Shown here piece by piece: positions 18,755-58,535 of a DNA stretch of 64,000 nucleotides. The DNA is from Tubulanus polymorphus. Taxonomy: Eukaryota; Animalia; Nemertea. The stretch spans positions 15,314,110-15,378,109 of the forward strand of contig NC_134030.1 of the NCBI RefSeq assembly GCF_964204645.1. Direction: 5' to 3'. Position 1 is the stretch's first letter. Each line of letters begins with the position of its first letter. Position numbers and translations under genes: made by a program. Under the pieces are notes generated by a model, which was not told where the DNA came from, made no database searches, and was given only the letters and a program-made list of their open reading frames with translations.

Positions 18755-18796
18755 CCACAACGTTTCGGCTGTTGACTAACAGCCATCATCAGGTGG
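18755..18796 (-). ncRNA. Minimal hammerhead-like motif, inverted copy
   Basis: Exact reverse complement of 19823-19864. Confidence 0.7.
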
Positions 18797-29403: not shown

Positions 29404-32400
29404 ATGGTAGAATTTAAAGAATACAGAATATTTGTTGATTCTAGAAAACTTACAAATTATAAATCTCATAATTTACTAGTACAATTAGATAGAGAATTCA
29501 AGAATTGTGTTGATTTAAAATCAGTTAATATAAGTTTATGTAATTCTTTTTATAATATATCGGATAAAACTTTTGAACAAAGAGGGTTTATGATTTATAT
29601 GCACGACGGTACGAGTAAAGGCAAATGCGACCATGTCGAACGTTATGACGTAGCGCGTCACTATTGGTTAAATTGATTGTTGCGCTAAAAATAGCTTCGA
29701 ATAGCTGGGATTCGAACCGAAACATATCTAAAACGAAATTATACGTGTTTTAGCGTTTAGCTATGTTCCAGTTTTCTCAACTTTCGCCATATTAATTTCC
29801 CAGGGCGGCGCTGAAAACCAGGAAGTAATTTTGTCATTTTGCTGGTTTTGGGCCTCCGAAATCTCAAAGTTTTGGAAGAATTTAAGGTAGAATAGACAGT
29901 TAAGTCATCCAAATACCCAATAGTATTAAAACCCATCTAAAAACGAATCGAATGATACCTTATATGTCTATATGGCTTTGGAAATAAGTGAGATATTCCC
30001 AGTTTCTCGTACTACTTCAAAACTAATTTTATGAGCTAGCGTTTTTACCTTATTAATTTTGATGACTTTTACCCGAATATAATTGGGTTCATTCGAAATC
30101 TGAAAACATACGTAATTAGATCTTGTTCTCCTGTCAATTTTGATATATAGAATGTGTACTCCCTATTACGAGTTGACTTAGAATTTGCGTCATCAAGTTA
30201 GGCCTAATCGTAAACTGCGGACCAAATTCGAAAATTATTGTAATTGGACTAGTGCCACAGTCTATAAAACACATACTGAGACTTATTGAATCCTGAAATG
30301 AAGGACTGTTATGAGAATAATCATTTGGCATAAGGAAATATTGAATTCGTTGCGTAATATGCCTAAACTAGGATTTTCCACGAGAAAGGCTTAAAAGCGC
30401 AGGCAATACCTCAATTTTGGCTCTGACACAGAAATTTGTGTGCAGGTCTTCGGGTGGTGGGGCCATTTTTGTAGGGGATTTCCCTGAAAATTCTGACTAA
30501 TTACTGCGCTGTCACAGTAAACAATTGATTAATACAGACTCGAAAATGTGTGTCTGTCCTGTCCAACAGTGCCGCACCCTTGTTGTGGAAACGGCTAAAG
30601 GGAAATAAATTTGATTGATCTGTTTCTGGTGGAAAACCAGCCTTTGGTTCATTTTCACGCATCTCACATCTAATGTCGAATTCAGTTTTGTTTGAAAGGA
30701 TATCAGGTTGTCTGGCTCAGTTAGTGTTTAGCGTAGGCCTACTAGGGACCTACTAGGGACTATGTATTGGAAGATTGCCAAAAATCTTTGAATTGTTAAT
30801 TTTATTTTAAAGATAATATTTTTTTTTTTTTATAGGATTCGTCAGTTATTTGTCAGACATAGCAGATATTTTATAACCGATTTTTCCCATTCAAATGTAA
30901 GTTGTATCAAGCAGAAATTTGCATTTTTTTTCATATTTATTTGTTTATAACATAATATTGACATTTGTTTATTTCAGGTAGATGGCAAGTAGCGTGCATT
31001 TGGTTCTGATGGTACCCATGGAATTCAGCAGTTGGCCTTCCATATCATATCAATACATTTTACAAATTAGTAACCGCAATTGCTCAAATGGCTTGTTGCA
31101 TTCAAACCTTCTGTCTCATTGTTTTAGGTTGGAAATAAAAGATTGATGTACTTTCAATTTGCTTCTTTTTCTGACTGCGATATATATTACCACGTCTACA
31201 GCTCGTTGAACCCGGGTTTCAAAGTATGCGGGTTCATATAAACCCAGCGTTTGCAGGGCTGCATCTACACTTAATTTAGCTCCAGTAACTGAATCCACAT
31301 CTGGTCTCAGTTTCACAAAAAAGTTAAACTCAAATTTTTGGTGTGATTGCTATTGGGTACTTCATGTTTTGAATGAGGACAACAATTCAAACTTAACCGT
31401 TTTAGGCTTAAACTTTTTCGTGAAACTGGGCCCTGTAGAGTTTTTCGTGAACATAGGTTCAATTCTCAATAGGTTATATAACTCCTTTTTCAAAAACCTG
31501 GCTTTTTGCATTCAACCCGTGTTTCGAGCTTAGTGTAGACGCATAACTTCGGTATAAGATGCAAGTGTAGACGAAGCTTCTCTTATTTTCTTCTGTTAGT
31601 AGGAATGAATAGGAATTCACGACTTCAAGAATACGCATAAGAAAAAGCTCTTTTATATGTTTAGATTTATTCTAACATCAAAGTGAAAAGATGGAAACAA
31701 GTAAAATCTTGACAATCCCCAGTTTAAAGATTCAACTTCATGCCCTTGTACTTGATATCTGCATCACCTAAAGATGAATAAAAGCAAACAAAAAAATCAA
31801 TTGATTGCTGAAAGTTAAATGATTCAATACAGCAGCGATGACTACAGATGATGTATTTACCATTCAGTCAGTGAGGCCTACTCACTTTTTATCATCTCCA
31901 ATCCTGTAAACCTGGCTTATCTAGTCACAAGTTGACCTCTAAATTAGCATTGTTCGGGTTCCTGTAACAGGCTGAACTCTCTAAAAAAAAAACATTGCCT
32001 TTGAAATAGAAAAATTGCATGTGGAAATTTATTTCAAGACTTCATAGTTATGTAAATAAATGACATGAATAGCCTACCGTCTTACGACTCTAAGAGGCCT
32101 AGGCCTACTTTTCGGGTCCATGGAAAAATCATTCGACACTAGTAGATAGGTGGTCTGTCAAAAATGTTTCCTAAAAATAAGATAAGTAGCAGTGAGTACA
32201 CTACCTACAGAATAGATTTTAGATCCTTCCACGCGCGTATCGCGAGACCGCGCGGTGTTGTTTATTTAGAGTATTATGACGTCATAACAACATTCGCGCA
32301 CCTAGATAGTTCACGTGTTTGGTGTCAAGGTCGCTGAGAGTTACGGCTCTGTACCTTCGTGTATGAGAAATAAAGATAAATGGTTTCATATATTTTTAAA

Positions 32401-37731: not shown

Positions 37732-40603
37732 AAGATGTAAGAAATTATATTAATTCATTAGATAATAAAAAAGATATAGAGATAACCGAAGCATTTAAAA
37801 GTGATATTGGCCCAGCAGCTATTGAGTTTAAATTTCATAAAGGAAAAACATTAGAAGAAAATAAAAAACATTTAGAAAATATGAAAAATATTATAAAAAT
37901 AATTACAGATGTTGAATACCCTAAAATAAGTATATCTTCTAAAGTTAAATTCATAAAATCTGAAGATAAACCAATATATAATATAAATTCTCATTCACAA
38001 CATATTATATCTAATCGTTTTAATGAAGTAAAAACTAAAATAGAAGAGAAATATTTTGAAGGATCTGGTTTAATATTTGATGAAATAATATTTATGACTT
38101 TACATGTGTATAACACAAAATATAATAAGTTAACTAAATCAAAACCAATTGATGAAAATAATGTATCATATTATAAAGAACCAGATATTGAAGCATCGAG
38201 TTATATTAAACTACCATTTAAAACTATTGCTGTAATAAATGTACAAAATGAAGTTGATAAATGTTTTCTATGGACAATTATAAGTTGCTTACATCCAACA
38301 GAAGATATTACACATACTTTTAGATTAACACATTATAAACCATTTGAAAATAATTATAAGATAGATAAGTATCCTGTTAGAATTAAAAATATCCCAAAAA
38401 TAGAAAGAGATTTAAGAATAAATGTATTTGATTTAATCAAATTGCCAAATACAAAAGGTAACAATATAAAACATTATACATTAGAACCTTTATACCTATC
38501 AAAAGATTATGATTCAAATGATGTTATAGTTATACTATATTATGAGAATCATTATATGTGGATTAAAAGAATTGATTTATTTTTTAAATCAGAAAATGAT
38601 TTTGATAATAAAATATATCTATGTAGAAAATGTTTACATAAATTCAGAACTGAGAGTGCATTATTAAATCATAAAAAATTATGTGAAAATCATGATTATT
38701 GTAAATTAGTTTTACCAAATGAAAAGGATAAAATATTAGAATTAAAAAAATATGATTACAAAAATAAAGTTCCATTTGTCATATATGGAGATTTTGAATC
38801 ATTAAATAAAGAATTAACTGATCAAGATAGAAAAGAAATATATTATAAAAGAAAGAAATTAAATTCTAATGAAAATGATTTTTCAGATGAACCACCAAAA
38901 ACAAATACAATTAAAAAGATTCATCAATCAGCTGCAGCTTTCGGGTTATATATAAAATCTGGTTATCCAGAACTAATTGAAAGTGAATATTATCATTATA
39001 GAAATGAAAATGTTATCAATCATTGTTGTGACTTATTAATTGAATATGAAATAAGATTTAGTAAATTATTGAATACAAATAAAGAAATTATAATGACAGA
39101 AGAAGATAAAGAAGCATTTGTGTTTACAGGTAAATGTTATTATTGTGAAAAGATATTTAATTATAAAGATAAACAAGAAAATTAATTTTTTAAAATTATT
39201 TGACGCCTGCGAAAAAATGTAGAATTTCTGGGGTAAGCTAATGTGGAATTGCAAATTTGAAATTGAAGTTTTAAGAAATTTGGGAAATTATGAGATTTGG
39301 CGATTGGGTAGATGATACAGGTCTTCGACTCTAGTAGTGGTTTAATTTTTTTTATTGAAAATTCTCAATAATTGGATCGTGTGGCCTAGCCAGCCGGCCC
39401 GGGCCACGGTATTGGCTGTCACTCGATATCCTAGAGTCTTGAGTCTGGGTTTAAGTAGACATTGTCATATAAAATAATATGTTTGTGTTATTCTGTATGA
39501 ACTACCCGTTTGTCATGTATGTTGTATTTTCTTATTTTAAAATTTATATTTATTGAATTTGGGAATTTTATCCCGGAATTTCAATGGAATAAGGATCAAT
39601 AAAGAATTGAATTGAATTGTCACCTAATACACATGCCATCAGAGGACGCGGAGCCGTATATGACAGCTATGCTATTATAAATTGCTAATCTCACGAAACC
39701 TGCATACCCCTAATATCGAACATATTTTCTAAAACATTATATGTTTCCTTATGTTTACACATTTTCATATCGACCACTTGTAGCCGCCGATGAAATTCAC
39801 GCCGGCCCTACACAGATCGTAGATAGCTTCGTCATTCCGCCAGCATCCCCATGTCAGGGTCTGACTTTTGAATCAGACTTCCGCATCGTGTATACATCCG
39901 CCATTTAACCGAATAATCTGATTTACTTATCATTTCTATTTATGCCTGCCGCTTCTGATATAGTCATACATCCATTACTATTACAATACGTCTTCTAATG
40001 ATATTCAATGCAATATAACATTTCGACGTTCAAATATAGGTCATTATATAATCACAGGAAGCCATTCTACATCTATGTCAATTATATTTTGCCAAGTAGC
40101 TTAATTGTGTACACATAGACCTGTGACGTTTTGCATATCGATTTACGGTTGTCGTTTGTAAAATGACGCTGAATGGCTAACATTGTTTAGGTTTCATAAT
40201 GGTAACGTTTTAAAAGGCGTCAAAAAAGTAAGAGACCATGATCATTTGAACGGAAAGTTTAGAGGCACTGCACACGAGAATTGTAACTTACAAGCTAAGA
40301 CAATTAACTTTGCACCAGTTATATTTCATAATCTATCAGGATATGATGCTCATTTATTTATCAAACAGTTATGCCATTAAATAGAAGAAATTAATAATGA
40401 AATAGAAAGATTAAATTCAAATAGATCAAAAGATAAAATACCAACTTATACATTTAAAATGTTAGCTAGAACATCTGAGAATTATATATCATTCCAATTT
40501 GGTTGCCTAAGATTTATAGATTCATATAGATTTTTAAATAGTTCATTAGATAACTTATCAAAATCATTAGTTGATGATGAATTAAAAATATTAAAGCAAC
40601 ACT
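37732..40603 (+). mobile_element. Polinton copy B, left portion (5'-truncated pPolB)
   Basis: pPolB homology restarts at AAGATGTAAGAAATTAT. Interrupted at about 39172 and at 40603. Confidence 0.9.
39172..40224 (-). mobile_element. Helentron/HINE-like insertion in pPolB of copy B
   Basis: Inserted in the A6 run of GATAAAAAAGTAAGA with no clear TSD. Asymmetric sub-TIRs TTTGACGCCT (39199) / AGGCGTCAAA (40215), stem-loop TAATTTT-TT-AAAATTA, minus-strand end CTTGTT. Confidence 0.75.
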
Positions 40604-41127
40604 AGTAATAGGGGTAATGGGCTTTCATACCAAAGGTCGAACGGTCGAGCCCATTAAAAAACAAAACATTAAAAGTAATTAAAAACTATAATATATTTTC
40701 ATAACCGCGTGCATTTTATATTAAAACTAAATATTTATTCTAAGATATCAATAATTTACAATACACAAATTCATATAATCAAATATATTCAAATAATAAT
40801 GATTATTCTATTATTCAACTGAAATGCACGCGGTTATGAAAATATATTATAGTTTTAAATTACTTTTAATGTTTTGTTATTAATGAGCTCGACCATTCAA
40901 CCTTTGATATGAAAGCCCATTACCCCTATTACTCTTAAAATATTCATATAAATGAATAACATTTAAATCATTGAACTTCTAAAATCAATTTTAATAAAAA
41001 ATTTATTATTAAAATGGAAGCAAATAAGTACTACTGTCCAACATGTAATATCAACATAGATAAATCCCAAAAAGCAAGACACAATAAAACTAAAACACAT
41101 TTAGAGAATAAATTGAAACTAGAATAT
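40604..41127 (+). repeat. Left TIR of copy C (40604-40933 self-palindromic)
   Basis: Reverse complement of 58422-58946 with a few differences. Confidence 0.96.
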
Positions 41128-44100
41128 AAAGATGATATATTAGAAACTAAATTAGATGAATTAAAGAATGCAAAAGAAACATACAAATGTGATACATGTA
41201 ATCAATCATTCAGTGATAAAAGATATTATAAAGAACATTTAAAATCTAAAAGTCATATTGGAAATATGAATAATGATATTTTAGGTGAAGATTATTTTGA
41301 TAATGATAAAGATAATAAACATAAGACAATTAAAAAATAAATTAAACAATAAAAGACCATACATGGAAGATGTAAGAAATTATATTAATTCATTAGATAA
41401 TAAAAAAGATATAGAGATAACCGAAGCATTTAAAAGTGATATTGGTCCAGCAGCTATCGAGTTTAAATTTCATAAAGGAAAAACATTAGAAGAAAATAAA
41501 AACATTTAGAAAATATGAAAAATATTATAAAAATAATTACTGATGTTGAATATCCTAAAATAAGTATATCAGTTAAAGTAAAGTTTATAAAATCTGAAGA
41601 TAAACCAATATATAATATAAATTCTCATTCACAACAAATTATTTCAAAACAACATGTAGATGATAAATTAGATAAATGTTATAATGAAGTAAAAACTAAA
41701 ATAGAAGAGAAATATTTTGAAGGATCTGGTTTAATATTTGACGAAATAATATTTATGACTTTACATGTTTATAACACAAAATATAATAAGTTAACTAAAT
41801 CAAAACCAATCGATGAAAATAATGTATCATATTATAAAGAACCAGATATTGAAGCATCGAGTTATATCAAACTACCATTTAAAACTAATGCTGTTATAAA
41901 CGTACAAAATTTTGATGATAAATGTTTTCTATGGGCTATAATAAGTTGTTTACATCCAACAGAAGATATTACACATAGTTTTAGATTAACTCATTATAAA
42001 CCATTTGAAAATAATTATAAGATAGATAAGTATCCTGTTAGAATTAAAAACATCCCAAAAATAGAAAGAGATAATAATATAAAGATTAATGTATTTGATT
42101 TAATCAAATTACCAAATACAAAAGGTAACAATATAAAACATTATACATTAGAACCTTTATATCTATCAAAAGATTATGATTCAAACGATGTTATAGATAT
42201 ACTATATTATGAGAATCATTATATGTGGATTAAACAAATCGATTTATTTTTCAAATCAGAAAATGATCACCATAAAATATATCTTTGTAGAAAATGTTTA
42301 CATAGATTCAGTAATGAAAGAACGTTATTAAATCATAAACAATTATGTGAAAATCATGATTATTGTAAATCAGTTTTACCAAATGAAAAAGATAAAATAT
42401 TAGAATTCAAAAAATATGATTACAAAAATAAAGTACCATTTGTAATATATGGAGATTTTGAATCATTAAATAAAGAATTAACTGATCAAGATAGAAAAGA
42501 TATATATTATAAAAGAAAGAAATTAAATTCTAATGAAAATGATTTTTCAGATGAACCACCAAAAACAAATACTATTAAAAAGATTCATCAATCAGCTGCA
42601 GCTTTCGGGTTATATATTAAATCTGATTATCCAGAACTAATTGAAAGTGAATATTATAATTATAGAAATGAAAATGTTATCAATCATTTTTGTGACTTAT
42701 TAATTGAATATGAAATAAAATTTAATGAAAAGTTAAATAAAAATATAGAAATTATAATGACAGAAGAAGATAAAGAAGCATTTGCGTTTGCAGATAAATG
42801 TTATTATTGTGAAAAGATATTTGATTATAAAGATAAAAAAGTAAGAGACCATGATCATTTGAATGGAAAGTTTAGAGGCGCTGCACATGAGAATTGTAAC
42901 TTACAAGCTAAGAAAATTAACTTTGTACCAGTTATATTTCATAATCTATCAGGATATGATGCACATTTATTCATCAAACAGTTATGCTATAAAATAGAAG
43001 AAATCAATAATGAAATAGAAAGATTAAATTCAAATAGATCAAAAGATAAAATACCAACTTATAAATTTAGAATGTTAGCTTAAACATCTGAGAATTATAT
43101 ATCATTCCAATTTGGTTGCCTAAGATTTATAGATTCATATAGATTTTTAAATAGTTCATTAGATAACTTATCAAAATCATTAGTTGATGATGAATTGAAA
43201 ATATTAAAGCAACACTACCCAAATAATGATGATTTTCAATTAATGAGATATAAAGGAGCAATTCCATATTCTTTCTATAAAAATCATAATGATTTTAACA
43301 TAACTGAATTATTAAAAGAACAATTCTATGATGAATTAAAAAATGAATATGTTAAAGATGAAGTCTATAATAGAACATTGAATATTTGGAATCATTTCAA
43401 AATGAAAAATCATGGGCAATTAGTAGATTTATATTTAAAATCAGATGTATTATTATTAACCGATATATTCGAAAGGTTTAGAGATGTAAACCTAAAATAT
43501 TTTAATATTGATCCTTGTCATTGTTATTCATCACCAGGATTGACATGGGATTGTGGATTAAAATTTACAGATATAAAAATGGATTTGTTAACAAATATAG
43601 ATCAATTATTATTATTTGAAAAATCTATAAGAGGAGGAGTTTCAGGTGTATTAGGTGATAGATATTTCAATGTAAATGATAATCCTGGATATAAGTTATT
43701 ATATATAGATGCAAATAATTTGTATGGTTGGGCAATGATGGAACCACAACCTTATGGAGTATTTGAATTAACTGAAGTTTTACAGAATGAAAATAATGAT
43801 AAATTTGATTGGAAGAAAAGAATTCTAGATATTGCAGATGATTCAGATACTGGTTACTTCTTTGTTGTAGATTTAGAATATCCTGAACATATTAAATTTA
43901 AATCTAGAAATCTAGCATACTGTCCCGAACATAAAACTGTAACTCATGAAGAATTATCAAATTACCAAAAAAGAATTAAACCTGAAAATCATATTCATAC
44001 AGAAAAGTTAATGGTAACTCAAGAAGATAAATATAATTATGTAGTACATTATAGAATGTTAAAGTTTTATTTGAATCAAGGAATGATTCTAAAAAAAAGT

Positions 44101-45043
44101 ACATAGATATATTTCGTTTAGTCAATCTAAGTGGTTAGAAAAATATATAGATTTTAACACCAAACAGAGAACTGAAGCTAGAACTGATTTCGAAAAAGAT
44201 TTCTTCAAGTTAATGAATAATGCATTCTATGGTAAGACTTGTGAAAATATTAGAAATAGAAATGATATTGAGTTAGTTAGTAATGGTAAAAGAATTAGAC
44301 ATTTACAAACATAGCCTAAGTTCATTGGTAACAGAATATTTGATGAAAATTTAGCCGCAGTTAAGATGAGAAGAACATCAATGAAATTTAATAAACCAAT
44401 CTATGTTGGCGCTTCAGTTTTAGAATTATCAAAATTACTAATGTATGAATTCTATTATAATGTATTACAACCACTTTTTGGAGAAAAACATATAGAAATA
44501 TTATATTTTGATACTGACAGTTACATATTAAAGATAAAAACTGATAACATAACTGATGATTTAAAAACATTAAAACATCATTTTGATTTTAGTAACCGTC
44601 CTAAAGATCATGAATTGTTTAGCAATGATAATAAAAAAGTTCCCGATAAATTCGAAGATGATTTAGGCGGTGAAGAAATGATTGAATTCATAGGTATTCG
44701 ATCTAAAATGTATTCATATAAAACTAAAGAACATGAAGCTAAAAAGTTAAAAGGAATAACCAAAAGTGTAGTAGAAAAGAATATTCATTTCAAAGATTAC
44801 ATCAATTGTATATTCAATGAAGAAGTTAGAAAACATAAAATGAGATGTTTAAGATCTGAAGATCATGAAATGTTTATTGAAGAGATAGAAAAGATAAGTC
44901 TAAACCCATTTGATGATAAAAGATATATTTTAGATGATGGAATTCATACAGTTGCTTATGGTTGCAATTCAGATGAATACTTAAAATTTAAAAGAGAAGA
45001 AACAAAAGAGAACGAGATAATGAAAAGAATTCTAACGTGTTAA
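41014..45043 (+). pseudogene. Protein-primed DNA polymerase B polyprotein, copy C (C2H2 fingers, TP-like region, vOTU-like protease, exonuclease with EndoVII-like insert, polymerase)
   Basis: CPTC..H..H fingers; KCFLWAI...ENHY; VIYGDFES; CYYC..RDHDHLNGKFRGAAHENCN; motifs A/B/C. Broken near 41335, 41500, 43081, 44095 and 44311. Confidence 0.95.
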
Positions 45044-45072
45044 TCAAATTTTAATAAAAATATGTTATTAAA

Positions 45073-45426
45073 ATGGAGAGTAAACAAGCACACAGTGAGA
45101 ACAACAAATTATTTCTAGATAGAATTAAAGATATAACAAATGTAAAATCTGTAGATCATAAATTCAAAAAGTTGACAGAATTAACAATCCATAAGAAATA
45201 TCTAATTACAAATATTGATACAGTTGCTAACAAACATGGAGATAAATTAGTTATACACTTAGAATATGAAGGATTAAAAGGAAATACATATAAATTCAGA
45301 ACATATTTACCGGATAGATTTCATAGATTATCAGGTGAAGATTTAGAAGAATTATGTTCTGGAGATTTCTATTTCGTATACAAAGGTAAGAATGAAAAAG
45401 GGCACCATGAAATAGATTTCGAATAA
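45073..45426 (+). CDS. 117-aa protein, possibly OB-fold ssDNA-binding
   Basis: Intact, conserved in three copies, directly after pPolB, beta-rich pattern. Function is inferred. Confidence 0.55.
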   Translation: MESKQAHSENNKLFLDRIKDITNVKSVDHKFKKLTELTIHKKYLITNIDTVANKHGDKLVIHLEYEGLKGNTYKFRTYLPDRFHRLSGEDLEELCSGDFYFVYKGKNEKGHHEIDFE

Positions 45427-45440
45427 AATATGTAAAATAA

Positions 45441-46190
45441 ATGGTGGAATTAAAAGAATACAGAATATTTGTTGATTCTAGAAGACTTACAAATTATAAA
45501 TCACATAATTTACTAGTACAATTAGAATTTAAGAATTGTGTTGATTTAAAGTTAGTTAATATAAGTTTATGTAATTCTTTTTACAATGTATCGGATAAAA
45601 CTTTTGAACATAGAGGGTTTATGATTTATATGAGAAATAAAGATAAATGGTTTCATATATTTTTAAAACCAGGATTATATAATTTAGAATCATTAGCGCT
45701 GGAAATTAATAGAAGAGCTCGGTTGAAAATCGGGGGCACTTCTGTATTTGAAATTAAATTTAATAAAATTGATAGTACTAATAAAATTAGAATAAAGATA
45801 TCTAATGAACAACATAAATTTATGGTAAACAAACCACTGGCTAAAATGTTAGGAATTAAACCGCTTACAGTTACTGGAAATGCAGAAGGCAGCTCAAATA
45901 TAATACCTTTTACACACTTTTATATTTATTGCAATTTAATCGAGCCTACAAAAACTTTCGAAGCAACTAAAGAAACAATTTGTAATTCTAGTATACTAAA
46001 TATTTTACCGCTAAAAAATGTTAAACAATTTGGAACTCAAATAAATTATAATTTAACAGAATGTGATTTCAAACCTTGTATTCCAAAATTTAATAATTTT
46101 AAGTTAGAAATAAGAAATCACAATGGATATTTAATTGATTTGAATAACTTTCCTGTGATATATGAATTAATTATAAGATGTAGAGAGTAA
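45441..46190 (+). CDS. Minor capsid protein (penton, single jelly-roll)
   Basis: IFVDSR..., PGLYNLESL..EIN, FYIYCNLI, LEIRNHNGYLIDLNNFPVIYELIIR pattern typical of Polinton/virophage pentons. Confidence 0.8.
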   Translation: MVELKEYRIFVDSRRLTNYKSHNLLVQLEFKNCVDLKLVNISLCNSFYNVSDKTFEHRGFMIYMRNKDKWFHIFLKPGLYNLESLALEINRRARLKIGGTSVFEIKFNKIDSTNKIRIKISNEQHKFMVNKPLAKMLGIKPLTVTGNAEGSSNIIPFTHFYIYCNLIEPTKTFEATKETICNSSILNILPLKNVKQFGTQINYNLTECDFKPCIPKFNNFKLEIRNHNGYLIDLNNFPVIYELIIRCRE

Positions 46191-46206
46191 TTTTTTCATT
46201 ATATAA

Positions 46207-46564
46207 ATGAATATAACTGTTGGACCGAGTATATGTTTTGGGTTTGATTTTAAACATGAGAAATAAATGAAATTTAACATTAATGATGTAATTACACATA
46301 TCAAAAATATTGCATTTTCTAATGAAACAACATTTGAGTATGAAACAACAATAGATAAAGAAACTTTAAATGTAGAAAAGATTACTAATTTAATTAGAGA
46401 ATCTTTAAGATTTTATGAATTAGATGAAGATTTTATCATCGATGATATTAAAAAAAATAATAATTGAAATATATACAAATGAAACTAGTAATGAAATAAA
46501 TGTTGAATTAATCATAAATAAGATAACTAAATATTTTGATGATAGTAATTTTTTGGATAAATAA
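46207..46564 (+). pseudogene. Unknown 118-aa protein (broken here; intact at 32940 and 63283)
   Basis: Comparison between copies. Confidence 0.75.
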
Positions 46565-46786
46565 ATGAGTGATAATAAGTGGATAATAACTGGATTATAT
46601 AACGGCGCATTACTATCAGTTGGAACTGTTGGTTATTCAATGGTATTAAAAAAAGTATTCAAAATGGGAAGTGTTAATGTTGATAGATTTGATATAAATG
46701 ATATTTTAAAATTAACATTAGCAGTTACTTTATCTAATTTAACTATTGATTATTTGGAAAAACAAAAATATATTCCTCCCATATAA
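46565..46786 (+). CDS. 73-aa hydrophobic protein
   Basis: Also intact at 63640; two hydrophobic stretches. Confidence 0.75.
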   Translation: MSDNKWIITGLYNGALLSVGTVGYSMVLKKVFKMGSVNVDRFDINDILKLTLAVTLSNLTIDYLEKQKYIPPI

Positions 46787-46811
46787 ATGCATAATTTTTT
46801 ATGCTAAATAA

Positions 46812-47234
46812 ATGGCTTCTGCAATTATAACTATTATAGGATCGGCAATTGTTAACGCTTTAGCATTTACTGGTGGTGGATATTTATTTAAACATATTGA
46901 TAAAAATAGTTCATTAGGAGAACAAAGAAGACATAACTTAGCGTTAGAGAAATATAATAAAGCTGCAGAAGAATATAGAGAAAAGAGACAAAACTATATG
47001 GATTACATCAATAAAGAATTATATGATCAGAAGATTTCACATAGAGATTTTCAATCAGTTGATGATGCAATGAGTTTATATAACGCGGTAACCAATAAAG
47101 AAAAATTACATCTATACAAACCTAAATTATCAGATTATTATACCCCAAGTAAAGAACAACAGAAATATGAAATAATATGGATTTTAGGTGGAACTGTTAT
47201 TGTTATATTTGTTGCTTATAAATTTACTAATTAG
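46812..47234 (+). CDS. 140-aa predicted membrane protein
   Basis: Hydrophobic N-terminus and C-terminal IIWILGGTVIVIFVAY; intact in three copies. Confidence 0.8.
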   Translation: MASAIITIIGSAIVNALAFTGGGYLFKHIDKNSSLGEQRRHNLALEKYNKAAEEYREKRQNYMDYINKELYDQKISHRDFQSVDDAMSLYNAVTNKEKLHLYKPKLSDYYTPSKEQQKYEIIWILGGTVIVIFVAYKFTN

Positions 47235-47254
47235 TAATTTTTTTTGCTAAATAA

Positions 47255-47689
47255 ATGGAAGATAAAGTTGATAGTATTGATATTATTCCTCATGATATAA
47301 ATAAAACTAAATTAAAAACATATTTAGAAAAACAAATATTAGAATTTGAAAATGACTTAAAAGTTAAAAAGAAAAAATATTTAAAAAGTAAAATTATATA
47401 TTATTTGATTATAAGTGGTTCGGTTACAATTAGTTCTGTAATAACATTTTTAGCAATATTCAGCCCATTAACACCTTTAGCTATATCAATTGGTGTGTTA
47501 GGATTAAGTTCAAGTGTTTTAACTGGTATAAGTTCAAAATTAAATATAAAAAGTAATAAAGAAAAAATTAAAACTAATATAAAAGAAATTAATAAATTAA
47601 AGAACACACTAGATTATATCATAAGTTTAAATGGTCATATAACAGTTGAAGAACAAGATAAATTATTAAAAGAATTAATAAATTATTAA
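47255..47689 (+). CDS. 144-aa predicted two-TM protein
   Basis: Central hydrophobic hairpin flanked by Lys-rich helices. Confidence 0.75.
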   Translation: MEDKVDSIDIIPHDINKTKLKTYLEKQILEFENDLKVKKKKYLKSKIIYYLIISGSVTISSVITFLAIFSPLTPLAISIGVLGLSSSVLTGISSKLNIKSNKEKIKTNIKEINKLKNTLDYIISLNGHITVEEQDKLLKELINY

Positions 47690-47705
47690 TTTTTTAATTA
47701 TATAA

Positions 47706-49094
47706 ATGGTAGATAGTTTTCCAAAAGCTTTCCAATATAATAAATCAATTAAATATAATATTCCAGCAATAGATTTTAATAAAGATATTACATATAGAAA
47801 TGAAGTTTTAGATTCATTAACTAATTTAGAAATTTATGTTACTGAAACTAATAATTTTAATGCAAAGATGGAAAATATATTTCATGTATATTTAATTAAT
47901 TTTAAAAAATTGAAAGATGAAAAACAATGGTTATTAAAATCTAATATGAAGTATTGGCAGAACCAATTAAATTTTGCTGTTTATTGTTCAACAACAGGAT
48001 GTGGAATAAGTTGGAATGATCATTTGAATAATTCTAAATATAAACTAATTCAAAAATTATTTAGATTTCATACATACTTTCAAATCAGAATAATATTAAA
48101 TGAATTAGAGTGCGCTTTACCAGGATCAAGATATTTTAAAGAATTAGATAATAATAATAATTTATCTAAGTTTTATAAAATTTGCAATGAATTTAATATA
48201 GATATAAATAATTCTGATTTTAGAACAAAAATTGGAACAATAAGATCACTTCCTTGCCCTAAAAAGATTGCAGAATATTTTTACTTCCCATACCATCTAA
48301 TAGCTTTTATAATATCTATAATAATAAATTAGGTTATGGTAAAATAGAAACTAAGGATTTAGAAACATTAAATTTCAATAAATTACCGAAATGTTATGAT
48401 CATTTAAAACAAGAAAACAATAATGGTTGGGTTTATTTTATTTTAGAAAATAGTGAAGGTTTTACTAAATCAGGTATAGAAAGAATAAATCAATCTATTA
48501 GAACTTATTTGATTTGTATTCTAGGATCACAAGTTGAAACAAGATCACCGATAATTGGAAATTTGAATACATCATTTGATACACAGAAACAATTTAAAGT
48601 TTTATTTGAAGATTCCATTCATAATGATAAAATAGATCGATTCCAGAAAACATTATAAGATATCAAAATTATTTAGATAAATCTCATATAAGACTTAATT
48701 ATTATATAGGCCCTAATCTATTAATTATTTCTAATGATTTAGTATTAAAGATGGGAAACATAATTGGTTATAATAATCTAATTAAAACTGCAACAATAAA
48801 TAATTCATTTGGGTTAAATGATATAAATAAAAAGATTATCACTGCTCCAAAATTAATGGAAGGTGTAAAAAATAAAAAAAACACATTCAATCAACAGAAA
48901 CTAAAACTAATAATATCAAATTAAATAATGATTCTAAAATAAAAGATTACAATACATCAGAAAATAATAGAACTGATATTATTCAACATGATATAATTAA
49001 ACTAAATGATGATAATAAATCCCATGAAAATGCTAAATTAGCTATAACTTGTATAGGAATTGTAATCGGAGGAATATTATATTTTAAATTTTAA
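47706..49094 (+). pseudogene. Unknown protein with C-terminal TM anchor (disrupted)
   Basis: Homolog of 34435-35766; WQNQLNFAVYCxTTGCGIS conserved. Confidence 0.7.
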
Positions 49095-49110
49095 TTTTTT
49101 TGTTATGTAA

Positions 49111-50579
49111 ATGGATGTAGAAGGTGGAGAAGATTATGAAATGGAAAACATGGGAAATAATGATGATGCCAATACTAACAATGATGATTATATGACTGCT
49201 GATACTAATATTGATAATGATAATGATACAACATGTAATTCTAATTTAGCAGATAGTGGTTCTAAAGTCCCATCAACAGATGAATTTGATAGAAGAACTA
49301 GATCGAGAATAAATCCTGAAAATGAAAATCCATATTTAATAAGACAAGATTTAGAAAATATAAACCAAGCGCGTAGATTACAACATATATTTGAAAGATC
49401 TTAATATAATATAAATTTTAGAGACGCCAGAATTTTAGCACAAAATTTAGAATTTTTAGATGATGAATATTATTATCATTTGACTGGTGATTATTATATT
49501 GATATCTCTTATAAAAAAACAAAACAAAATATTAAAAGAATCAACTTTGCTTAAGTTAGACCTATCTAGAATTAAAAGAATAAGAAATAGTAATGAAATA
49601 GAAAATGTAACACAAGAAGAAATTATTAAAAATGAAAGAGTATTTAAACAAAGACTTAATGAATTATTTGAAACAATCAAAAATAATTCAAAAACAGAAA
49701 CAACTTCTGAACACAATAAAACATCCAAAACTAGTAAAATTAAATCAAACGAAGTTCAAACTGAAAAACTTTTACCGAATGGATTACTTGATGCAACAGA
49801 TCAGCAATTAGAAGATTTAAATATATTTTCTGATGAAGCAATTAGAGAAATTATTAGTATAAGAAATGAAGCTGATAAAATTGCACATAATAAAAGTATA
49901 AGAGATCAAAAAATTATGTATTTGGAAAAAGAATTAACTAATGCAAATAAAGAAATAGAACAAATAAAGTCTGATTTAGATCATCAAGTAATTGATGAAA
50001 TAGAATATAGGCAAAAAGAATTACGTTTAGAAAAAGAAATTAATAATTTAAAAGATAATTTAGAAGTACAGAAAGAAGAAATTAAATTATCATTAAAATC
50101 ATATGATTATAATATTAATAGATTAAAAGTTATTTTTAAAGATTTGTTGATTAAACCAAATTCTGAAATATCATTAAAAGATAGAATAAAGTTATTATTT
50201 AAATTAGAAGGAATAACAATTCTTTCAATTCTAACAGCTGTAACTATGTTATTTACAACAATAGGTTTAGCTATATCAAATGCTTTAAAATCTACTCCTA
50301 CTCCCACTCCCAATAAACCAGATAAACCTCCAGGTAATAATTCTATACAAGATAAAGTTAAGGATGGTTTAAAGAAATTAGCAAAATATTTATGGGAACT
50401 ATCTAAAAAATCTGCTGCAGCATTTGCCAGGAGTTATTGCATCAATTGTTGGTTTTATATTGAAATCTGCAGGAAACATTATTAACTTTGCTGCTGAACA
50501 TATTATTTTATTTTTAATTACAGTTGTAAGTGCAATTATTTTTGGTTTAGTAAATATAATATCAAAAAATATCAAGTAA
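49111..50579 (+). pseudogene. Acidic/coiled-coil protein with C-terminal TM segments (disrupted)
   Basis: Homolog of 35783-37214. Confidence 0.7.
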
Positions 50580-50645
50580 CCATGATATCAAAAGATATCA
50601 AGTAAACCTGATCAAAAATAAATAATTAATTTTTTTGTTAAATAA

Positions 50646-51893
50646 ATGAGTGGGAGTTATATCATTCCTTCGAAGAATCATAGAATATCTAATGCTATTA
50701 AAGCAGAAAGATCACATCGTATAATTACTCATAACCCTTCAAATATTAATCCCGATGAAACTTTATACGTTAGAATCCCTCGATTAACAAAAAATACTTT
50801 TTATGTTCCAAATAGTATTTAATTATCGGCCGATATAAAAGTAATCGGTAACAATAATAATTATGTTGTTGATAATGTTGGAAGATATTTGATTAAAAAG
50901 TTAACAATAAAGATTGGTCCAGAAACAGTTTTCTCATTAGATGATTATAATTTATTTATGCATTATAAAGATTTATGGTTAACTAAAGAAAATAGAAATA
51001 ATATGATATTTCAAGGCATCCAATCAGAAAACCAAAATAAATTAAGATCAGAAGCTAATAGCGCAATATTAACTAATGCTGTAGATAAATTGATAAAAAG
51101 TATATATGGAAGCAAATATAAAATTCCATTAGACTTTGAATTGATAAATAATAATGCACCTTTATATAAATACGCAATTCAAGAAGACGTTATATTCGAG
51201 ATAACATTTGCTCCTGTAAATGAAATTGTATTATCTAGCGTTAATAAAGATATGAGTTATAAATTATCGAATATATGTTTAGAATATGACACAGTAACTG
51301 ATGAAAATATTTCAAGTATAATTCAAACTAAATACAATCAAGGATTTTCATTATTATATGATTATATTGATAAATTTAAAACTGTAACTATTAATGCAAA
51401 TGATGAAATAATTAATGAGAATATTAACTTCCCAAGAAGATCTATTAAAGGTATATTAATATTTTTTACCATTGCAACATATACTAATGGCGCAATAAAT
51501 GTTGATAATTATTATAATCCTGAAATAACAAAAGTAGAAATAACTATCGAAGGAATAGCAAATAAAATATTTTGTCAAGGAATAAGAATGATTGATCAAT
51601 GGCCAGAAATTAGAAAACATTTTATGAATGAAAAAGTGAAATCATCTGAAAATTGTAACATTAATCAAATTGATTATTATACCGGCAATAGATATGCATT
51701 ATGGTTAGATTTTAGAACAACAGAGGATAATTCATTACATGGTTCTGGAAAAAAACTACAGAACACTAAAGATGGAATACAATTATTCATGACAAAGAAT
51801 AAAGGAATCAAAAATTTTAAAATGCACATTTATATTATATCTGACGCGCAATTAAATATTGTAAATTCACAATTAGATAGTGTTATGTATTAA
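50646..51893 (+). pseudogene. Major capsid protein (double jelly-roll), one premature stop at about 50820
   Basis: About 415 codons in one frame. Beta-strand-rich pattern (LYVRIP, LIKKLTIKIG, YKIPLDFEL, ICLEYD, YALWLDFR), size and position fit. Confidence 0.75.
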
Positions 51894-51925
51894 AATTTTA
51901 ACTTTAATAAAGATATATATAATAA

Positions 51926-52756
51926 ATGGAAGGAGGTAAAGTATATAAACATATTCCATACATCGATACACATGAAAATAATGATGGTTTATATTATGTA
52001 ATACCTTGTAATATAGCTTTGATATTTGATCCTATTTTCAAAATTTATAAAACTAAACTAACAGAAATCGATAATAATAAAAGTGAAGTTGTTGATAATT
52101 TAAGTAATGTAATTGATAATAATGTAATACCTTTTACAGTAATACCTACTACATCTAATAATGTTATACCTACTACATCTAATAATGTAATACCTTCTAC
52201 ATATAATAATGCAATAATATTAAATGTTAGTAAAAATAGAAATTATTGTGATTATTGTAAAGGTGAATTTTCAAACGCTCCATCAAATTGGAATAAACAT
52301 ATGAATATAAAGGTACATATTACTAATGTTATAGAACGTGTTGGTTTAAAAGAATTTATAGAACACCCATTTAGATATGTTACAAAATTTGTTTCAAATC
52401 AAAAAGTAAATGGTAAAGAATTATATAAAGATTTATTATTAGCAACACCTAATAAAGATGAATTAGATCTAACCGATGCTAATGAAATATTAGAATCAAA
52501 CACTGAAAATGAAATATTAGGAGCAAACACTAATAAAGATGATAATGAAAATACAGGAAAGCGCATTGATAATAAAGATTCTATGAAACTTAAATCAGAA
52601 AATAAAGATATAGTTGAGCTGCCTAATAAGTATATCAATAAACCAATTATTTATGAAGATACGGTAGAGCATTTGAATAAATTGTTAGGGCCTGATAATG
52701 AATTGGAGAGTGATGATGAAAGTGATTCAGAAATTAATTATCTAACAATCAAATAA
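51926..52756 (+). CDS. 276-aa unknown protein with C2H2-type finger and NNVIPTTS repeats
   Basis: CDYC...HMNIKVH; 24-bp tandem units at about 52118-52210; TAAATG start. Confidence 0.7.
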   Translation: MEGGKVYKHIPYIDTHENNDGLYYVIPCNIALIFDPIFKIYKTKLTEIDNNKSEVVDNLSNVIDNNVIPFTVIPTTSNNVIPTTSNNVIPSTYNNAIILNVSKNRNYCDYCKGEFSNAPSNWNKHMNIKVHITNVIERVGLKEFIEHPFRYVTKFVSNQKVNGKELYKDLLLATPNKDELDLTDANEILESNTENEILGANTNKDDNENTGKRIDNKDSMKLKSENKDIVELPNKYINKPIIYEDTVEHLNKLLGPDNELESDDESDSEINYLTIK

Positions 52757-52888
52757 TAATAAAGGTTGAAAATTGTATAAACTAATAGTAAATAAAAAAG
52801 GGGGTTTTAAGTATTTAAGGTATCTAATAGGGTATCAGGTATTAGGGTATCAGGTATTAGGGTATCTAATACATAGTCATATAAATAG

Positions 52889-53500
52889 TTATTTTATAAA
52901 TTTATATTCATAGGGAAATTGTAGTCTCAGTAATAATTTTGAACCTTTATTATTCTTTAATTTATTCATTTATTCATCATGTAATTCAGTAGGTATAATT
53001 TGATTTTCTTCCAATGATTGTTGCATAGATTTTTTATATTTGTTATAAAATAAAACTAGAAATCTAATGTTTTCTCTAAAGTCTTTAACAATTGTATCAT
53101 ATTTTTGATTTAAAACCCAAGTTGTTATCCCAAAATGTCTCCCAGAGAAAGCTAAATAACATAACTCACTTTCTCTCACTTTTGAATCATGTAAATTTGC
53201 GCAATCATCTACAATGAATAATGTATTTGATCCTTTATAAGTATCAATTGCTATTTTTATACAATTATCTAAATTTTCTTTTACTGTTTTAGGATCTAAT
53301 ATAATAAACTTTTTCATCTTAACTATATCTCTATTATATGTTTTATTCATTTCATAAGTAGGACAAAATAATATTATATTATCAAAATGATTCTTATAAA
53401 TAGTTTCTAACAAGTCTAATATGAAATGTGTTTTACCACAATTGGTTACTCCAGTAACTAACATATTATGCGGTTCAAATATAAATAAATCTTTATTCAT
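52889..53500 (-). pseudogene. A32/FtsK-like genome-packaging ATPase (premature stop at 52970)
   Basis: Walker A GVTNCGKT, Walker B FIVDD, GRHFGITTWVLNQ motif. The frame continues past the stop to 52889. Confidence 0.9.
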
Positions 53501-54578
53501 TTATTCTTTTAATTTTGCTAGATAAAATCCATTCATTAAATTTATCATCGTATCCTTTATATTTAACCAAAGAATACTTTTTTCCTTTAAGAGATTTTGT
53601 TTTCAATACTTTTTCTATTTTGTATTCTATTTCATCTGGGTTTGGTACAAGTGATAATTCTTGTTCATAGAAATAACCTAATATTTCTTCATCTTTTAGA
53701 TCTTCTAATTTATAAACAAAAGGTTTAGTTAATATTATCTTTTTAATTTTAAATATTTCTTCAGTAAAATTTGGGGTATAACCTTTATAAAAGGGTTTTC
53801 TATATTTAGATATTCTTACGTGTTGTCCAATTTTTAATCTAGGTTCACCGAAAGCATGTGTAACAAACGCACCATATAAATTATTCCAAACTATTTCTGA
53901 ATTATCTTCTTTTCTAGCTTGTATAGGTTTCATATTTATAGAACTATGTTTAGAATTATTATAACCTTTCACCAAATCATCTAACACATCGATATATTTA
54001 TATGTTTCATTAGCAGTAAAATATTTCCACATTCTAGTTTTCAATGTTTTATTAAATCTTTCTATAATAGATGCTTTTTTATCTGAGTGTGTTGAAAAAT
54101 ATTTTACATCGTTATCAGATAATAGTTTTTTGAAATGTTTGTTATAAAATTCCTTACCTTCATCAAATTGTATCTTATCTGGAATAGCTTCTTTAAATAT
54201 AGATTTAAAAGCATTTGTTACTTCTATTCCAGTTTTATTTTTGATTGGAATTGACCATGCGTATCGACTGAATATGTCTATAACATTCAGTATCCAGAAA
54301 TATCCTTTGTTGTATTCTTCTAAGTTCTTCATGTCAATTAAATCTGCTTGCCATTGTTGATCGATATATGAAACCATAACTTTTCTTGTTAAATAAGTTT
54401 TATCCATTTTCTTGTGGATTTGATATGTTGGTTGATTTTGTAACCATGATTTTAATTCACTATATTTTATATTGCTATTATCAGATTTAATTTTATTCCA
54501 TAATTCTGAAACGTTAGAATATGATACTTCACTCTCTGGGTTATAATATAAATCTCTAAGATATTGTTCTTTTTTCAT
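53493..54578 (-). CDS. Retroviral-like (RVE) integrase with C-terminal chromodomain
   Basis: WQADLID, IQFDEGKEF, IIERFNKTLK (DDE triad); YKIEKVL...VKYKGYDDKFNEWI chromodomain. Confidence 0.95.
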   Translation of the reverse strand: MKKEQYLRDLYYNPESEVSYSNVSELWNKIKSDNSNIKYSELKSWLQNQPTYQIHKKMDKTYLTRKVMVSYIDQQWQADLIDMKNLEEYNKGYFWILNVIDIFSRYAWSIPIKNKTGIEVTNAFKSIFKEAIPDKIQFDEGKEFYNKHFKKLLSDNDVKYFSTHSDKKASIIERFNKTLKTRMWKYFTANETYKYIDVLDDLVKGYNNSKHSSINMKPIQARKEDNSEIVWNNLYGAFVTHAFGEPRLKIGQHVRISKYRKPFYKGYTPNFTEEIFKIKKIILTKPFVYKLEDLKDEEILGYFYEQELSLVPNPDEIEYKIEKVLKTKSLKGKKYSLVKYKGYDDKFNEWILSSKIKRINE

Positions 54579-54752
54579 CTTCTTTTAATCCATTAATAAT
54601 AATTTAGAATTAGTTTCAATGGTTTTATGATTTGACTTATTCTGGTATAATAGGTTTACTGTCCGGATAACTAAGTTTCCGATTATAATTGGAATCATTA
54701 TTGTTATAATCAGATTTATACTTATATTTATATATTACACCGGATAATATAA

Positions 54753-54983
54753 TTATAATAATATAATAACTGTTACTAATCCAATTGTAATATATAATTT
54801 ATAATTACTTCCAGCATTAGAAGAATCAGATGGATTATTATTTGAATCAATATCAGATAATTCATTTATATCGGTTAATTTCTTTTTCTTAGCTTTTTTT
54901 AATTCTGAGGATCTTTTACCTAATTCTCTTGCCCATTTAATTTGTTTCTCGGATCTAGCCTTTTTCTTAACGCTATCACTCAT
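54753..54983 (-). CDS. 76-aa basic protein with C-terminal hydrophobic tail
   Basis: TAAATG start, Lys-rich N-terminus, LYITIGLVTVIILL. Confidence 0.6.
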   Translation of the reverse strand: MSDSVKKKARSEKQIKWARELGKRSSELKKAKKKKLTDINELSDIDSNNNPSDSSNAGSNYKLYITIGLVTVIILL

Positions 54984-55578
54984 TTATTTTACTTAATTTT
55001 TGTCTTGATTCATTTTCTGTTTCGACGTTTGGTTGTAGTACATCTGTTTCGTTCTTACCTGATTTATATTCCATAGGCTTGATGTTCGAAAATGTTATGA
55101 CGCCAGTAGAAATTAATGTCATAACCGATCCTAATTGAAATGAAGCATAACCAACCCATTTTTTTAATTCAGTCATAACTAAGTAGTCATTTTTTAAATC
55201 ACTATATAATTTATTTTCATCATCAATTGGTATTAACTGGTTACATAACTTAGAGTAACATTTGACAATACCATCTGAAATAGAATCATTTATTCGGGCT
55301 AATCTAGCTTCTTCATAAATCTTAAAATATTTTATTACTTTATCTGGTTTCATAGAGTCTAGTTCTTGAAAAGTAATGATTCTATTTAAAAACTCCTTAG
55401 TTTTTCCACCGGCAATCAATAGTTCTAGATGATGCTTACAATATAAATAGTATTCATAATCTATATTACAATTAACTTGAGCACAATTGGTTACAACTGT
55501 ATCTTTATTATCACTTATACCCAAATCATCTAATGTCTTTTCAATATCAATACTATTCTTATTAGATTTCTTTGACAT
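54976..55578 (-). CDS. 200-aa unknown protein
   Basis: Intact ORF with T-run/TAAATG start; overlaps the next gene. Confidence 0.7.
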   Translation of the reverse strand: MSKKSNKNSIDIEKTLDDLGISDNKDTVVTNCAQVNCNIDYEYYLYCKHHLELLIAGGKTKEFLNRIITFQELDSMKPDKVIKYFKIYEEARLARINDSISDGIVKCYSKLCNQLIPIDDENKLYSDLKNDYLVMTELKKWVGYASFQLGSVMTLISTGVITFSNIKPMEYKSGKNETDVLQPNVETENESRQKLSKINE

Positions 55579-55979
55579 TTATATTAGAGAAAAAAAGCAA
55601 AAAAATATTATAAGTATTCTTCAAATGATACTAGTATCTCTTTAGGTTAATACTAAATTGACTAGGTTAGTTAAAGTTAAAGAATTTCTATTCAAAATCT
55701 ATTCAATCTAATGTCAATTAGAATTACCAAAAGAAAATATTAAAAATATAATAGAATTCACTAGCTAGTTGAAGTTATTGTTTTTTTATTATATTTTATT
55801 TAAATTAGGATTTAGATTATCTCACTACTATTGTTTATCTATAGGAGCAGTAACTATAACTGTCCAGATAAGTCATTTCGGATTCTCGATAATAAATCCT
55901 AAAACTGAAAATAAATTCAAAGAAACGACTGGTGGAAATATTATTTCATAAACACATATATTTATTATGTAAATTTTAG

Positions 55980-56332
55980 CGATCGATAATAGAACAATGG
56001 AGAACAATAGAAATGCGGTCCAATCGGACCAGTTATTGCGCAATACACAGTTATATTTTTATTCTGTAAACTACAACATTCAAACATAGAACTGTAACCA
56101 ATCAATATTGAGCAGCTGTTTCAGTCAACAACGATCAATAGTAGAACAACGGAGAACAATAGAAAAGCGGTTCAATCGGACCGGTTATTGCGCAATACAC
56201 AGTTAACAGTAAACAATCAATACAGAACAACCGCCGCCATTAACAACGATCAATAATAGAACAATGGAGAACAATAGAAAAGCGGTTCAATCGGACCGGT
56301 TATTGCGCAATACTTAGTTAACAGTAAACAAT
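55980..56332. promoter_or_regulatory. Three-copy direct-repeat array (about 75-90-bp core), candidate enhancer or origin
   Basis: Each unit carries AGAACAA(T/C)GG-AGAACAATAG and the palindrome TATTGCGCAATA. The repeat is seen directly; the function is inferred. Confidence 0.6.
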
Positions 56333-56409
56333 ACAATATTAAAACAGATATATACAATCGAGATTACATTTTTGATATCTATATTACAAAGACCTTCAGT
56401 GTTATAATT

Positions 56410-57132
56410 TATAATTTTGTCCAGAATTCTTTAATTACTGGATTGTTTCCAATCATTTCTTCAATTTCTGGTAAATATCTGACTACTTCACTAAATGCTA
56501 ATCCTAATATTTTGAATTTTTCATATTTTATTAATCTACTACCCTTCTCAGTTTTCTTTCAAAACCGGCACTGATATCTATGTTCTTTTTAACCCACAGC
56601 CCCCAAGAAATCCCCTCAGTTTCTTTATCAAACATTGAAAACCCTATATTTAGATAACCCCCGAAAATGATGTGGTCCCATAGGTGATTTGCTTTTCTAT
56701 TTAATATGGTGTTATAACTTTTTTTTAAGATATCAGTAATTTCAGCAAATGAAATAACTTCTACACTTTGTATTTCCGGAAAGTTTAAATGTTCTGTGTC
56801 AATGATTAATTTAGATTTTAAAAACTCGTTCAACTCTTCTCCACTCATTTTCTTAGTTTTCGATTCTTTGAGCCCCAACAGCAATTTGAGTCGCGTTGCT
56901 GGTAATTTTGGTAATTGTAGTTCGCGCGGTAATTGTTTATAATGTATTACATCACTCAGAATTTTCACCATTTCTTGATGATAGTCCAAATGTTCTTGTA
57001 ATTTTTGTGAAGTTTGTTCGTCAATTACGAGAGTTTCATCCTCCATTTCTATTGATTCCTGAGTTTCACTATCCAGCAGCAATCGTTCTCATCCGTTGGT
57101 TGGCTTAGAATTGGTTGATCTTTGTGTTCCAT
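56410..57132 (-). pseudogene. Unknown protein (core ORF 56531-57082, probably frameshifted at both ends)
   Basis: TAAAATG start at 57132; coding-like continuation to about 56410. Confidence 0.55.
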
Positions 57133-57553
57133 TTTAATCTAAAAGATATCGTGAAAATGAATTACTGTACTTAAATATGTTTAAAGGTTTCCCTACTTCA
57201 TAATAACTACAAAAAACGGTACTTACATTTAGATTTAGAACTGTAAACTGTGTTTTGAGAGAGAATATCCAATACGTACTATGTATGTGAAAGTTGATTT
57301 CTAACTGCCGACGTGGCGCACGTTCGACCAAACTAATTACTTCTGCATGTTTGCATGGATTGTAACAGATGTTCCTTTGTGATGTAATTGATTAATCCTT
57401 TTCAACTGAAATAGCACATTCGATCAATATTCAAATGAGGTGCGCCCCATTCAACTGAATATGAAGTACGGCACAGATGTTTTTGTAAACAACCTAATAC
57501 AATTACATATAGGCGGTTTGACATAGATCGAGAGTAACCGGTTTTCTAAGCGT

Positions 57554-58204: not shown

Positions 58205-58283
58205 TTATTATACCTATTTTTTTACTAAATTGGTTAATAATTTTAGAATCCTCTTCCATTTCTTCGACCAACGTCATCCTTTT

Positions 58284-58535
58284 TCATTCCTCGCTGCTTT
58301 TGATAAGTTGTTTCGATTCCTTGATATCAAATTCCTCAACGTATTGTTCATTATTTGGATCATTATTCCATAATTCAATAAATTTCTTTCCCTTTGTTAA
58401 CTGTTCTGAATATAACTGTAAATATTCTAGTTTCAATTTATTCTCTAAATGTGTTTTAGTTTTATTGTGTCTTGCTTTTTGGGATTTATCTATGTTGATA
58501 TTACATGTTGGACAGTAGTACTTATTTGCTTCCAT
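58284..58535 (-). CDS. TIR-borne duplicate of the pPolB N-terminal zinc finger fused to an HNH-like tail
   Basis: First 38 aa are identical to the start of the 41014 ORF. Confidence 0.65.
   Translation of the reverse strand: MEANKYYCPTCNINIDKSQKARHNKTKTHLENKLKLEYLQLYSEQLTKGKKFIELWNNDPNNEQYVEEFDIKESKQLIKSSEE

Follow-up and report, generated by a model that had tools for sequence, protein, structure and literature searches.

It is an open question by what route a Polinton leaves its integrated state, begins protein-primed copying and loses its terminal protein, and the available text of one study calls the last of these steps unclear (PMC11161782). In the locus considered here, a 64,000-nucleotide stretch of the Tubulanus polymorphus genome (the window), Polinton polymerases carry an endonuclease VII (EndoVII)-type domain and elements end in palindromes. 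A preliminary description of the DNA had proposed the domain as a candidate resolvase for these ends. AT-rich Polinton/Maverick copies are clustered in the window from 24.5 kb onward, nested or partial (24568-64000). One of them, element C, is complete:

40598-40603, no strand: left copy of the 6-bp target-site duplication (TSD)
40604-58946, no strand: element C, complete Polinton/Maverick of 18.3 kb, delimited by terminal inverted repeats (TIRs) and rejoining flanks
40604-41127: left TIR of C
41026-45040, forward strand: pPolB of C, broken, recognised from domain and motif matches
41719, forward strand: EGSG motif of pPolB, predicted terminal-protein region (from motifs and PMC11161782)
41914 and 42211, forward strand: predicted OTU-like motifs of pPolB (from motifs and PMC11161782)
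42448, forward strand: Exo I (YGDFES)
42940, forward strand: Exo II (HNLSGYD)
43432, forward strand: Exo III
43702, forward strand: Pol A
50823-51893, forward strand: likely major capsid protein (weak Pfam Capsid_N, E 0.012; homologues in related elements)
52970-53500, reverse strand: A32-type packaging ATPase (Pox_A32, E 6e-12)
53493-54584, reverse strand: rve integrase with chromodomain
57554-58204, reverse strand: second, stand-alone His-Me nuclease ORF, intact, beside the right TIR (PHROG 1035, E 5e-18)
58422-58946: right TIR of C
58947-58952, no strand: right copy of the 6-bp TSD

Element C interrupts the polymerase gene of element B/D, which the flanks on either side rejoin. Its TIRs (~525 bp) are 98% identical and its 6-bp TSD is perfect. 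Polintons/Mavericks have TIRs of 100-1500 bp, TSDs of 5-8 bp and lengths of 13-25 kb according to the available text of PMC10748475; C lies within all three ranges and encodes both pPolB and an rve integrase. It also has a packaging ATPase and a capsid gene that is weakly matched but shared with relatives, and no maturation protease was found among the 20 ORFs scanned (short or broken frames fell outside the scan). The pPolB of C carries zinc fingers, and the named polymerase homologues come from corals, a hydrozoan and insects. All polymerase gene copies in the window are disrupted by stops, frameshifts or insertions. The stand-alone His-Me nuclease has nine homologues, the closest (58%) in locus L024, and L024 is the only one of loci L001-L104 in which it is present. 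Elsewhere in the window, copy A stops short in its capsid gene near 37620, a 2.76-kb insert occupies 29601-32362, and a ~0.9-kb duplication begins at 63092. A MITE-like palindromic repeat of 1.25 kb lies at 18685-19934, with a partial copy at 1543-1796, and a short inverted repeat with tRNA-like arms at 3624-3977 is possibly SINE-derived.

The nuclease core sits between Exo I and Exo II of element C, where the preliminary description had placed it, and recurs in two further copies:

26806-26907, forward strand: EndoVII-type core of copy A, the same as C apart from the spacer
39135-40287, forward strand: EndoVII-type core of copy B, split, with motif parts at 39135 and 40222-40287
42760-42912, forward strand: EndoVII-type beta-beta-alpha-Me core of copy C, with Zn ligands C-C-H-C and a D-H...N triad

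The motif proper spans 42799-42900 in copy C. Copy B is broken by an insertion of ~1.04 kb (about 39175-40221) and reads GTAH where A and C read GAAH. The spacer, earlier given as nine residues, is ten. Assignment to the T4 EndoVII-type His-Me family is borne out by Pfam PF02945 (E 6.5e-6 on copy A; E 5e-5 on copy C, at 23.5 bits against a cut-off of 23.6), by PHROG 423 endonuclease VII (E 1.3e-6) and by intact equivalents of D40, H41 and N62, the catalytic residues of the T4 enzyme (PMC2699513, PMC5481773). The D-H...N triad, the zinc knuckle and a fold match of modest Z are together those of a beta-beta-alpha-Me nuclease.

Such inserts had been ascribed to one pPolB lineage. In an unbiased search, the query was only the region downstream of Exo II, that is, without the nuclease domain; among the 150 best representatives (50% identity), 12 had no Exo II match and 19 started too near Exo II, leaving 119 assessable. 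The insert, scored by HMM count, is present in 112 of these 119 relatives, found without use of the motif. Among the other seven, it is absent from P0152 and degenerate in P0252, and five are apparently misplaced or fragmentary; L011, too, has a lost or degenerate insert. The general-base His is kept in 109/112 and the metal-binding Asn in 108/112, in proteins ~40% identical, and the 110 scorable triads read D-H-N (79), H-H-N (20), N-H-N (6) or E-H-N (3), with two lost (108/110 kept). A search biased toward the motif recovered it in full in 118 of the best 120 of 466 matches to the region, and PF02945 is precomputed on most of the 120 listed homologues. Of 101 polymerase loci, 88 were assessable, with the insert scored in 87 and seen by eye in L102; all 35 loci reachable only through Pol A, not the motif pattern, have it (one by eye).

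A "Recombination endonuclease VII" domain was annotated in Maverick PolB in 2018 (Sf Mavericks 1 and 2; PMC5803895), and nematode pPolB1 has no such nuclease in the available text of PMC10748475. Given the 112/119 presence, the published annotation, and an HNH insert that, by figure label order, is a different insertion at another site (Jeong et al. 2023; PMC10748475), the EndoVII insert is a known, class-wide and near-universal feature of this pPolB class. Seventy loci (L106-L175) in prokaryotic MAGs encode pPolB of the same class, and several long ones resemble eukaryotic host contamination. In L110, L171 and L174, the core in the Exo I-Exo II interval is apparently duplicated, the first copy being degenerate and the second motif-bearing.

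The proposed resolvase role fares less well than the family assignment. T4 gp49 aligns with the family profile over residues 8-65 of 157 (probability 59%, E 1e-4), and D40, H41, H43 and N62 are kept in the profile; residues 66-157 have no counterpart, so that the long helix H2 and the C-terminal regions are absent. Exo II starts 9 residues past the catalytic Asn here, this distance is 9-10 residues in 86/110 proteins, and an AF2 model (57 sequences, pLDDT 86.6) has only 6 residues of His-Me helix before Exo II. Among nuclease folds, Hpy99I matches best (Z 5.7, rmsd 2.4, 60 residues), T4 EndoVII is not among the fold matches listed, Foldseek returned E 0.14 with no match at E <= 0.001, and a phmmer search of the core against the PDB gave nothing relevant. 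In the available text, T4 EndoVII forms dimers and its helix H2 penetrates the junction (PMC5481773), and monomeric beta-beta-alpha-Me enzymes are known (PMC2699513). Because the T4 match is limited to residues 8-65 and Exo II begins 9 residues past the Asn, a dimeric junction resolvase role of the polymerase insert is unlikely: the insert is the catalytic core alone, with no space left for the remainder of gp49. A single active site in each polymerase points to nicking, and we infer that a tethered nickase fits better than a dimeric resolvase. T4 EndoVII also cuts mismatches and bulges.

The palindromic ends attributed to these elements are confirmed, each TIR of C opening with a 330-bp palindrome:

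24568-24760, no strand: left terminal palindrome of copy A, 193 bp
40604-40933, no strand: left terminal palindrome of C, with 113-bp arms and a ~104-nt loop, the first part of the left TIR
58616-58946, no strand: right terminal palindrome of C, of the same polarity, with three arm mismatches (positions 27, 35 and 39)

The stem base of the C palindromes is the element-host boundary. The fold of 40604-40933 has z = -22 and -27 on the two strands, with 0/100 shuffles as good. The A and C palindromes have their outer 46 bp in common, and their inner palindromes are unrelated and near-perfect. Arm decay ranges from three mismatches in the least decayed C end to seven substitutions plus a bulge in A. 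The resulting G.T pair falls on the 3'-end strand at 8/8 distinct transition-mismatch sites (A-left and C-right), a bias with a two-sided binomial of about 0.008 for sites that are not fully independent, and the strand with its 3' end at the terminus forms the more stable fold (-113.6 vs -106.0 and -82.3 vs -71.8 kcal/mol). Either wobble selection or deamination of the 3'-end strand would produce this pattern, and both imply that the strand is sometimes exposed as single-stranded DNA.

Arm polarity can be followed in the raw reads of run X6 (about 12% of the run covered). At inner site 40907, 26/355 reads show the base of the outer arm, where flip/flop would give about half, and the variants listed include none at 40899. 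Depth drops there from 337 to 257, so that clipping could hide up to a quarter of reads. In three other variants, the loose ends have the inner-arm base at site 35. Run X6 also shows high depth and many loose ends inside the palindrome, indicating that the family is high in copy number and that its interior exists in several variants. IMG/VR does not contain the terminal 19-mer.

IMG/VR and metagenome loci seldom extend to true ends; complete relatives were taken from host-derived contigs in MAGs. One of these, G002:C67, carries the EndoVII insert and a 247-bp inverted pair. At each of its ends lies a 159-bp palindrome, the two being of one polarity; its TSD is low-information, inside an ATT repeat. 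Another, G002:C9, is bounded by a perfect 6-bp TSD and has a 221-bp TIR, with 174-bp palindromes at both ends, each with a single C/T mismatch at position 29 that gives G.T on the 3'-end strand. No EndoVII lies between Exo I and Exo II of G002:C9, by eye or by HMM. Instead, its polymerase has another nuclease-like domain upstream of Exo I (PHROG 13076 "endonuclease", E 2.7e-5), with a putative VSR-like motif; VSR nicks at G.T. A PDB search with this domain was empty, and no relatives of the polymerase were found in IMG/VR. The end sequences of C, G002:C67 and G002:C9 are unrelated, and in all three the arm polarity is the same at both ends. Between G002:C67 and G002:C9, capsids are 92% identical while polymerases and TIRs are unrelated, and from sequence the replication module and the ends appear to swap together. 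At L215 (169-290), the insertion point of the G002:C9 element is 8 bp from a palindromic end that belongs to another Polinton family, and Polintons may target one another.

The co-occurrence of EndoVII with palindromic termini, noted earlier, extends to other elements such as G002:C67, but each feature also occurs without the other. Hairpin ends lacking an accompanying EndoVII are seen in G002:C9. In G005:C156, EndoVII is present and the 164-bp inverted ends are non-palindromic and do not fold, although these ends are doubtful and no TSD accompanies them. Single terminal-type palindromes lie upstream of EndoVII-bearing pPolB in L123, L171 and L174, and two further ACACAC-type palindromes occur in C9 and C50. 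A 1-nt bulge at position 19-20, absent from the arm taken as outer, is found in C67, C9 (169-282), C50, L174 and L123; besides L123, the palindromes that keep it are four with ACACAC ends and differing interiors. L171 has a bulge at 26. L123 has one mismatch giving G.T on the 3'-end strand, L174 has a single transition in each direction, and strand preference is slight or absent in two ACACAC palindromes.

Palindromes occur in 5/43 loci with 1.2 kb upstream of pPolB (four of terminal type), ~1.9-fold the density elsewhere (17 in 499 kb), a count that is weak either way because gene order varies and most contigs end before the element does. The available TIR parts of L002 and L017, which may stop short of the true ends, hold no palindrome, and no TIR pair was found in ten further contig stretches (G003, G004 and G005:C217). 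Palindromes that may be either element ends or host repeats lie at L032, L038, L126 and L164. Those at L049/L083 and L086 were rejected as element ends, as they resemble host repeats.

Fixed polarity (no flip/flop in the reads), conserved mismatches or bulges near positions 20-40 and a fold that is mostly best on the 3'-end strand point to terminal palindromes that are single-strand hairpins rather than cruciforms. We favour, tentatively and with a little less than even confidence, the reading that the insert is a zinc-stabilised His-Me core, standard in its pPolB class, that likely serves as a polymerase-carried single-strand nickase and probably acts on the end hairpins. Integrated or replicating DNA would become transiently single-stranded, and the strand ending 3' at the terminus could fold back. 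The tethered nuclease would then nick this hairpin, either at the base of its stem or at the mismatch or bulge that is conserved. A 3' end would thereby become available, or be restored, for priming by the terminal protein, and strand displacement would then copy out the element with its orientation unchanged. The hairpins of G002:C9 without EndoVII and the unfolding ends of G005:C156 count against this reading, as does a G.T bias equally explicable by deamination of the 3'-end strand. Also against it are the palindrome-free TIR parts of L002 and L017, the low count of palindromes upstream of pPolB, the slight or mixed strand preference in L174 and two ACACAC palindromes, and nematode pPolB1 without such a nuclease. 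Cutting of the ends could also be the work of the second His-Me ORF or of the integrase. A broader proposal, which we regard as doubtful but worth stating, is that many pPolB Polintons have hairpin ends, with a mismatch or bulge programmed 20-40 nt from the tip, and that the polymerase carries a matching nickase (mostly EndoVII-type, VSR-like where the stem has a single G.T). Hairpin and nickase would together make up an exchangeable module for end processing, serving to release the integrated element or to renew its ends.

The nuclease might instead be active in general replication, acting on branched strand-displacement intermediates or on mismatches beside the proofreading site, with the hairpins serving as origin, panhandle, integrase recognition or end protection. 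This alternative is a serious possibility, if an unlikely one. The domain is near-universal whereas palindromic ends are shown in few elements, G005:C156 keeps EndoVII without a hairpin, and HNH or VSR domains were acquired at different positions in further pPolB lineages (available text of PMC10748475). It accounts less readily for the other nuclease-like insert in the sole palindromic-end element that lacks EndoVII, or for conserved arm asymmetries, which suggest a recognised site.

Improbable, in our view, is the resolvase reading of the preliminary description in a form where two polymerases dimerise via the insert and, in the manner of T4 EndoVII, resolve a cruciform extruded at either end. 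T4 residues 66-157 are without counterpart, the junction-penetrating helix H2 is cut to about 6 residues, the one-strand mismatch bias brings a cruciform no gain, and G002:C9 has its hairpin ends without EndoVII; these points stand against the EndoVII sequence family, palindromes long enough for extrusion with their base at the element boundary, and a fixed polarity compatible with resolution followed by strand displacement. Quite improbable as well is that the insert is a domesticated homing endonuclease or intein relic, now only binding DNA or stabilising the exonuclease domain. Intein origins have been suggested for such inserts (available text of PMC11161782), and the domain is lost or degenerate in P0152, P0252 and L011, but the catalytic His and Asn are retained at ~40% protein identity, and no intein splice motifs are seen at the insert borders. 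That the palindromes are MITEs landed at the ends by chance is highly improbable, and largely refuted for C and G002:C9 by TIR position and TSD: host palindromic repeats are common in the examined loci, but these palindromes begin at the terminal AG/AC motif within both TIRs in the same polarity, and in C and G002:C9 they abut the TSD.

The nuclease domain itself is already known; what has been little described is a hairpin end that recurs, keeps a fixed polarity and has programmed imperfections. Terminal palindromes are not reported in the available text of PMC11161782, PMC8502044 and PMC11131425, and polarity-fixed, conserved-imperfect hairpin ends recurring in unrelated pPolB end families were not found in the literature searched, which excluded subscription papers, RepBase and bioRxiv supplements. 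Taken together, hairpin ends and core provide a defined substrate and enzyme, and the release question becomes testable.

Comparison with T4 EndoVII (gp49) shows helix H1, the zinc knuckle, D40-H41-D42-H43 and N62 in alignment; C58 is His here, and residues 66-157 are absent. The T4 enzyme is free-standing, whereas the Polinton core is embedded in an exonuclease domain. Parvovirus/AAV termini likewise offer a fold-back hairpin that could be nicked. Unlike AAV-type ends, those described here show no flip/flop isomers (26/355 reads; the same polarity at both ends in three elements), and no Rep/HUH gene is recognised, the polymerase having predicted terminal-protein features instead.

Sf Mavericks 1 and 2 have the same domain call in a Maverick polymerase, along with an integrase with chromodomain and an A32 ATPase (PMC5803895), and their polymerase class is probably the Alpha class of PMC8502044. 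The available text on the Sf Mavericks proposes no function for the domain and has no match to "palindrom" or "hairpin" (PMC5803895). The HNH and VSR inserts of pPolB2 are also endonuclease domains inside a Polinton polymerase. By figure label order (supplementary Figs 1 and 9), HNH lies between Exo III and Pol A and VSR after Pol A, whereas the core here lies between Exo I and Exo II; the pPolB2 HNH is PacI-like and limited to oomycetes and nematodes (available text of PMC10748475). Halocafeteria virophages and PLVs share palindromes inside TIRs beside the TSD, and a hairpin role is proposed for them (10.64898/2026.07.28.741278). Those palindromes, 52 nt in subtype 5, occur mainly with non-pPolB replication genes in the available text of that study, whereas the Polinton palindromes described here are 114-330 bp long, accompany pPolB and have conserved asymmetries.
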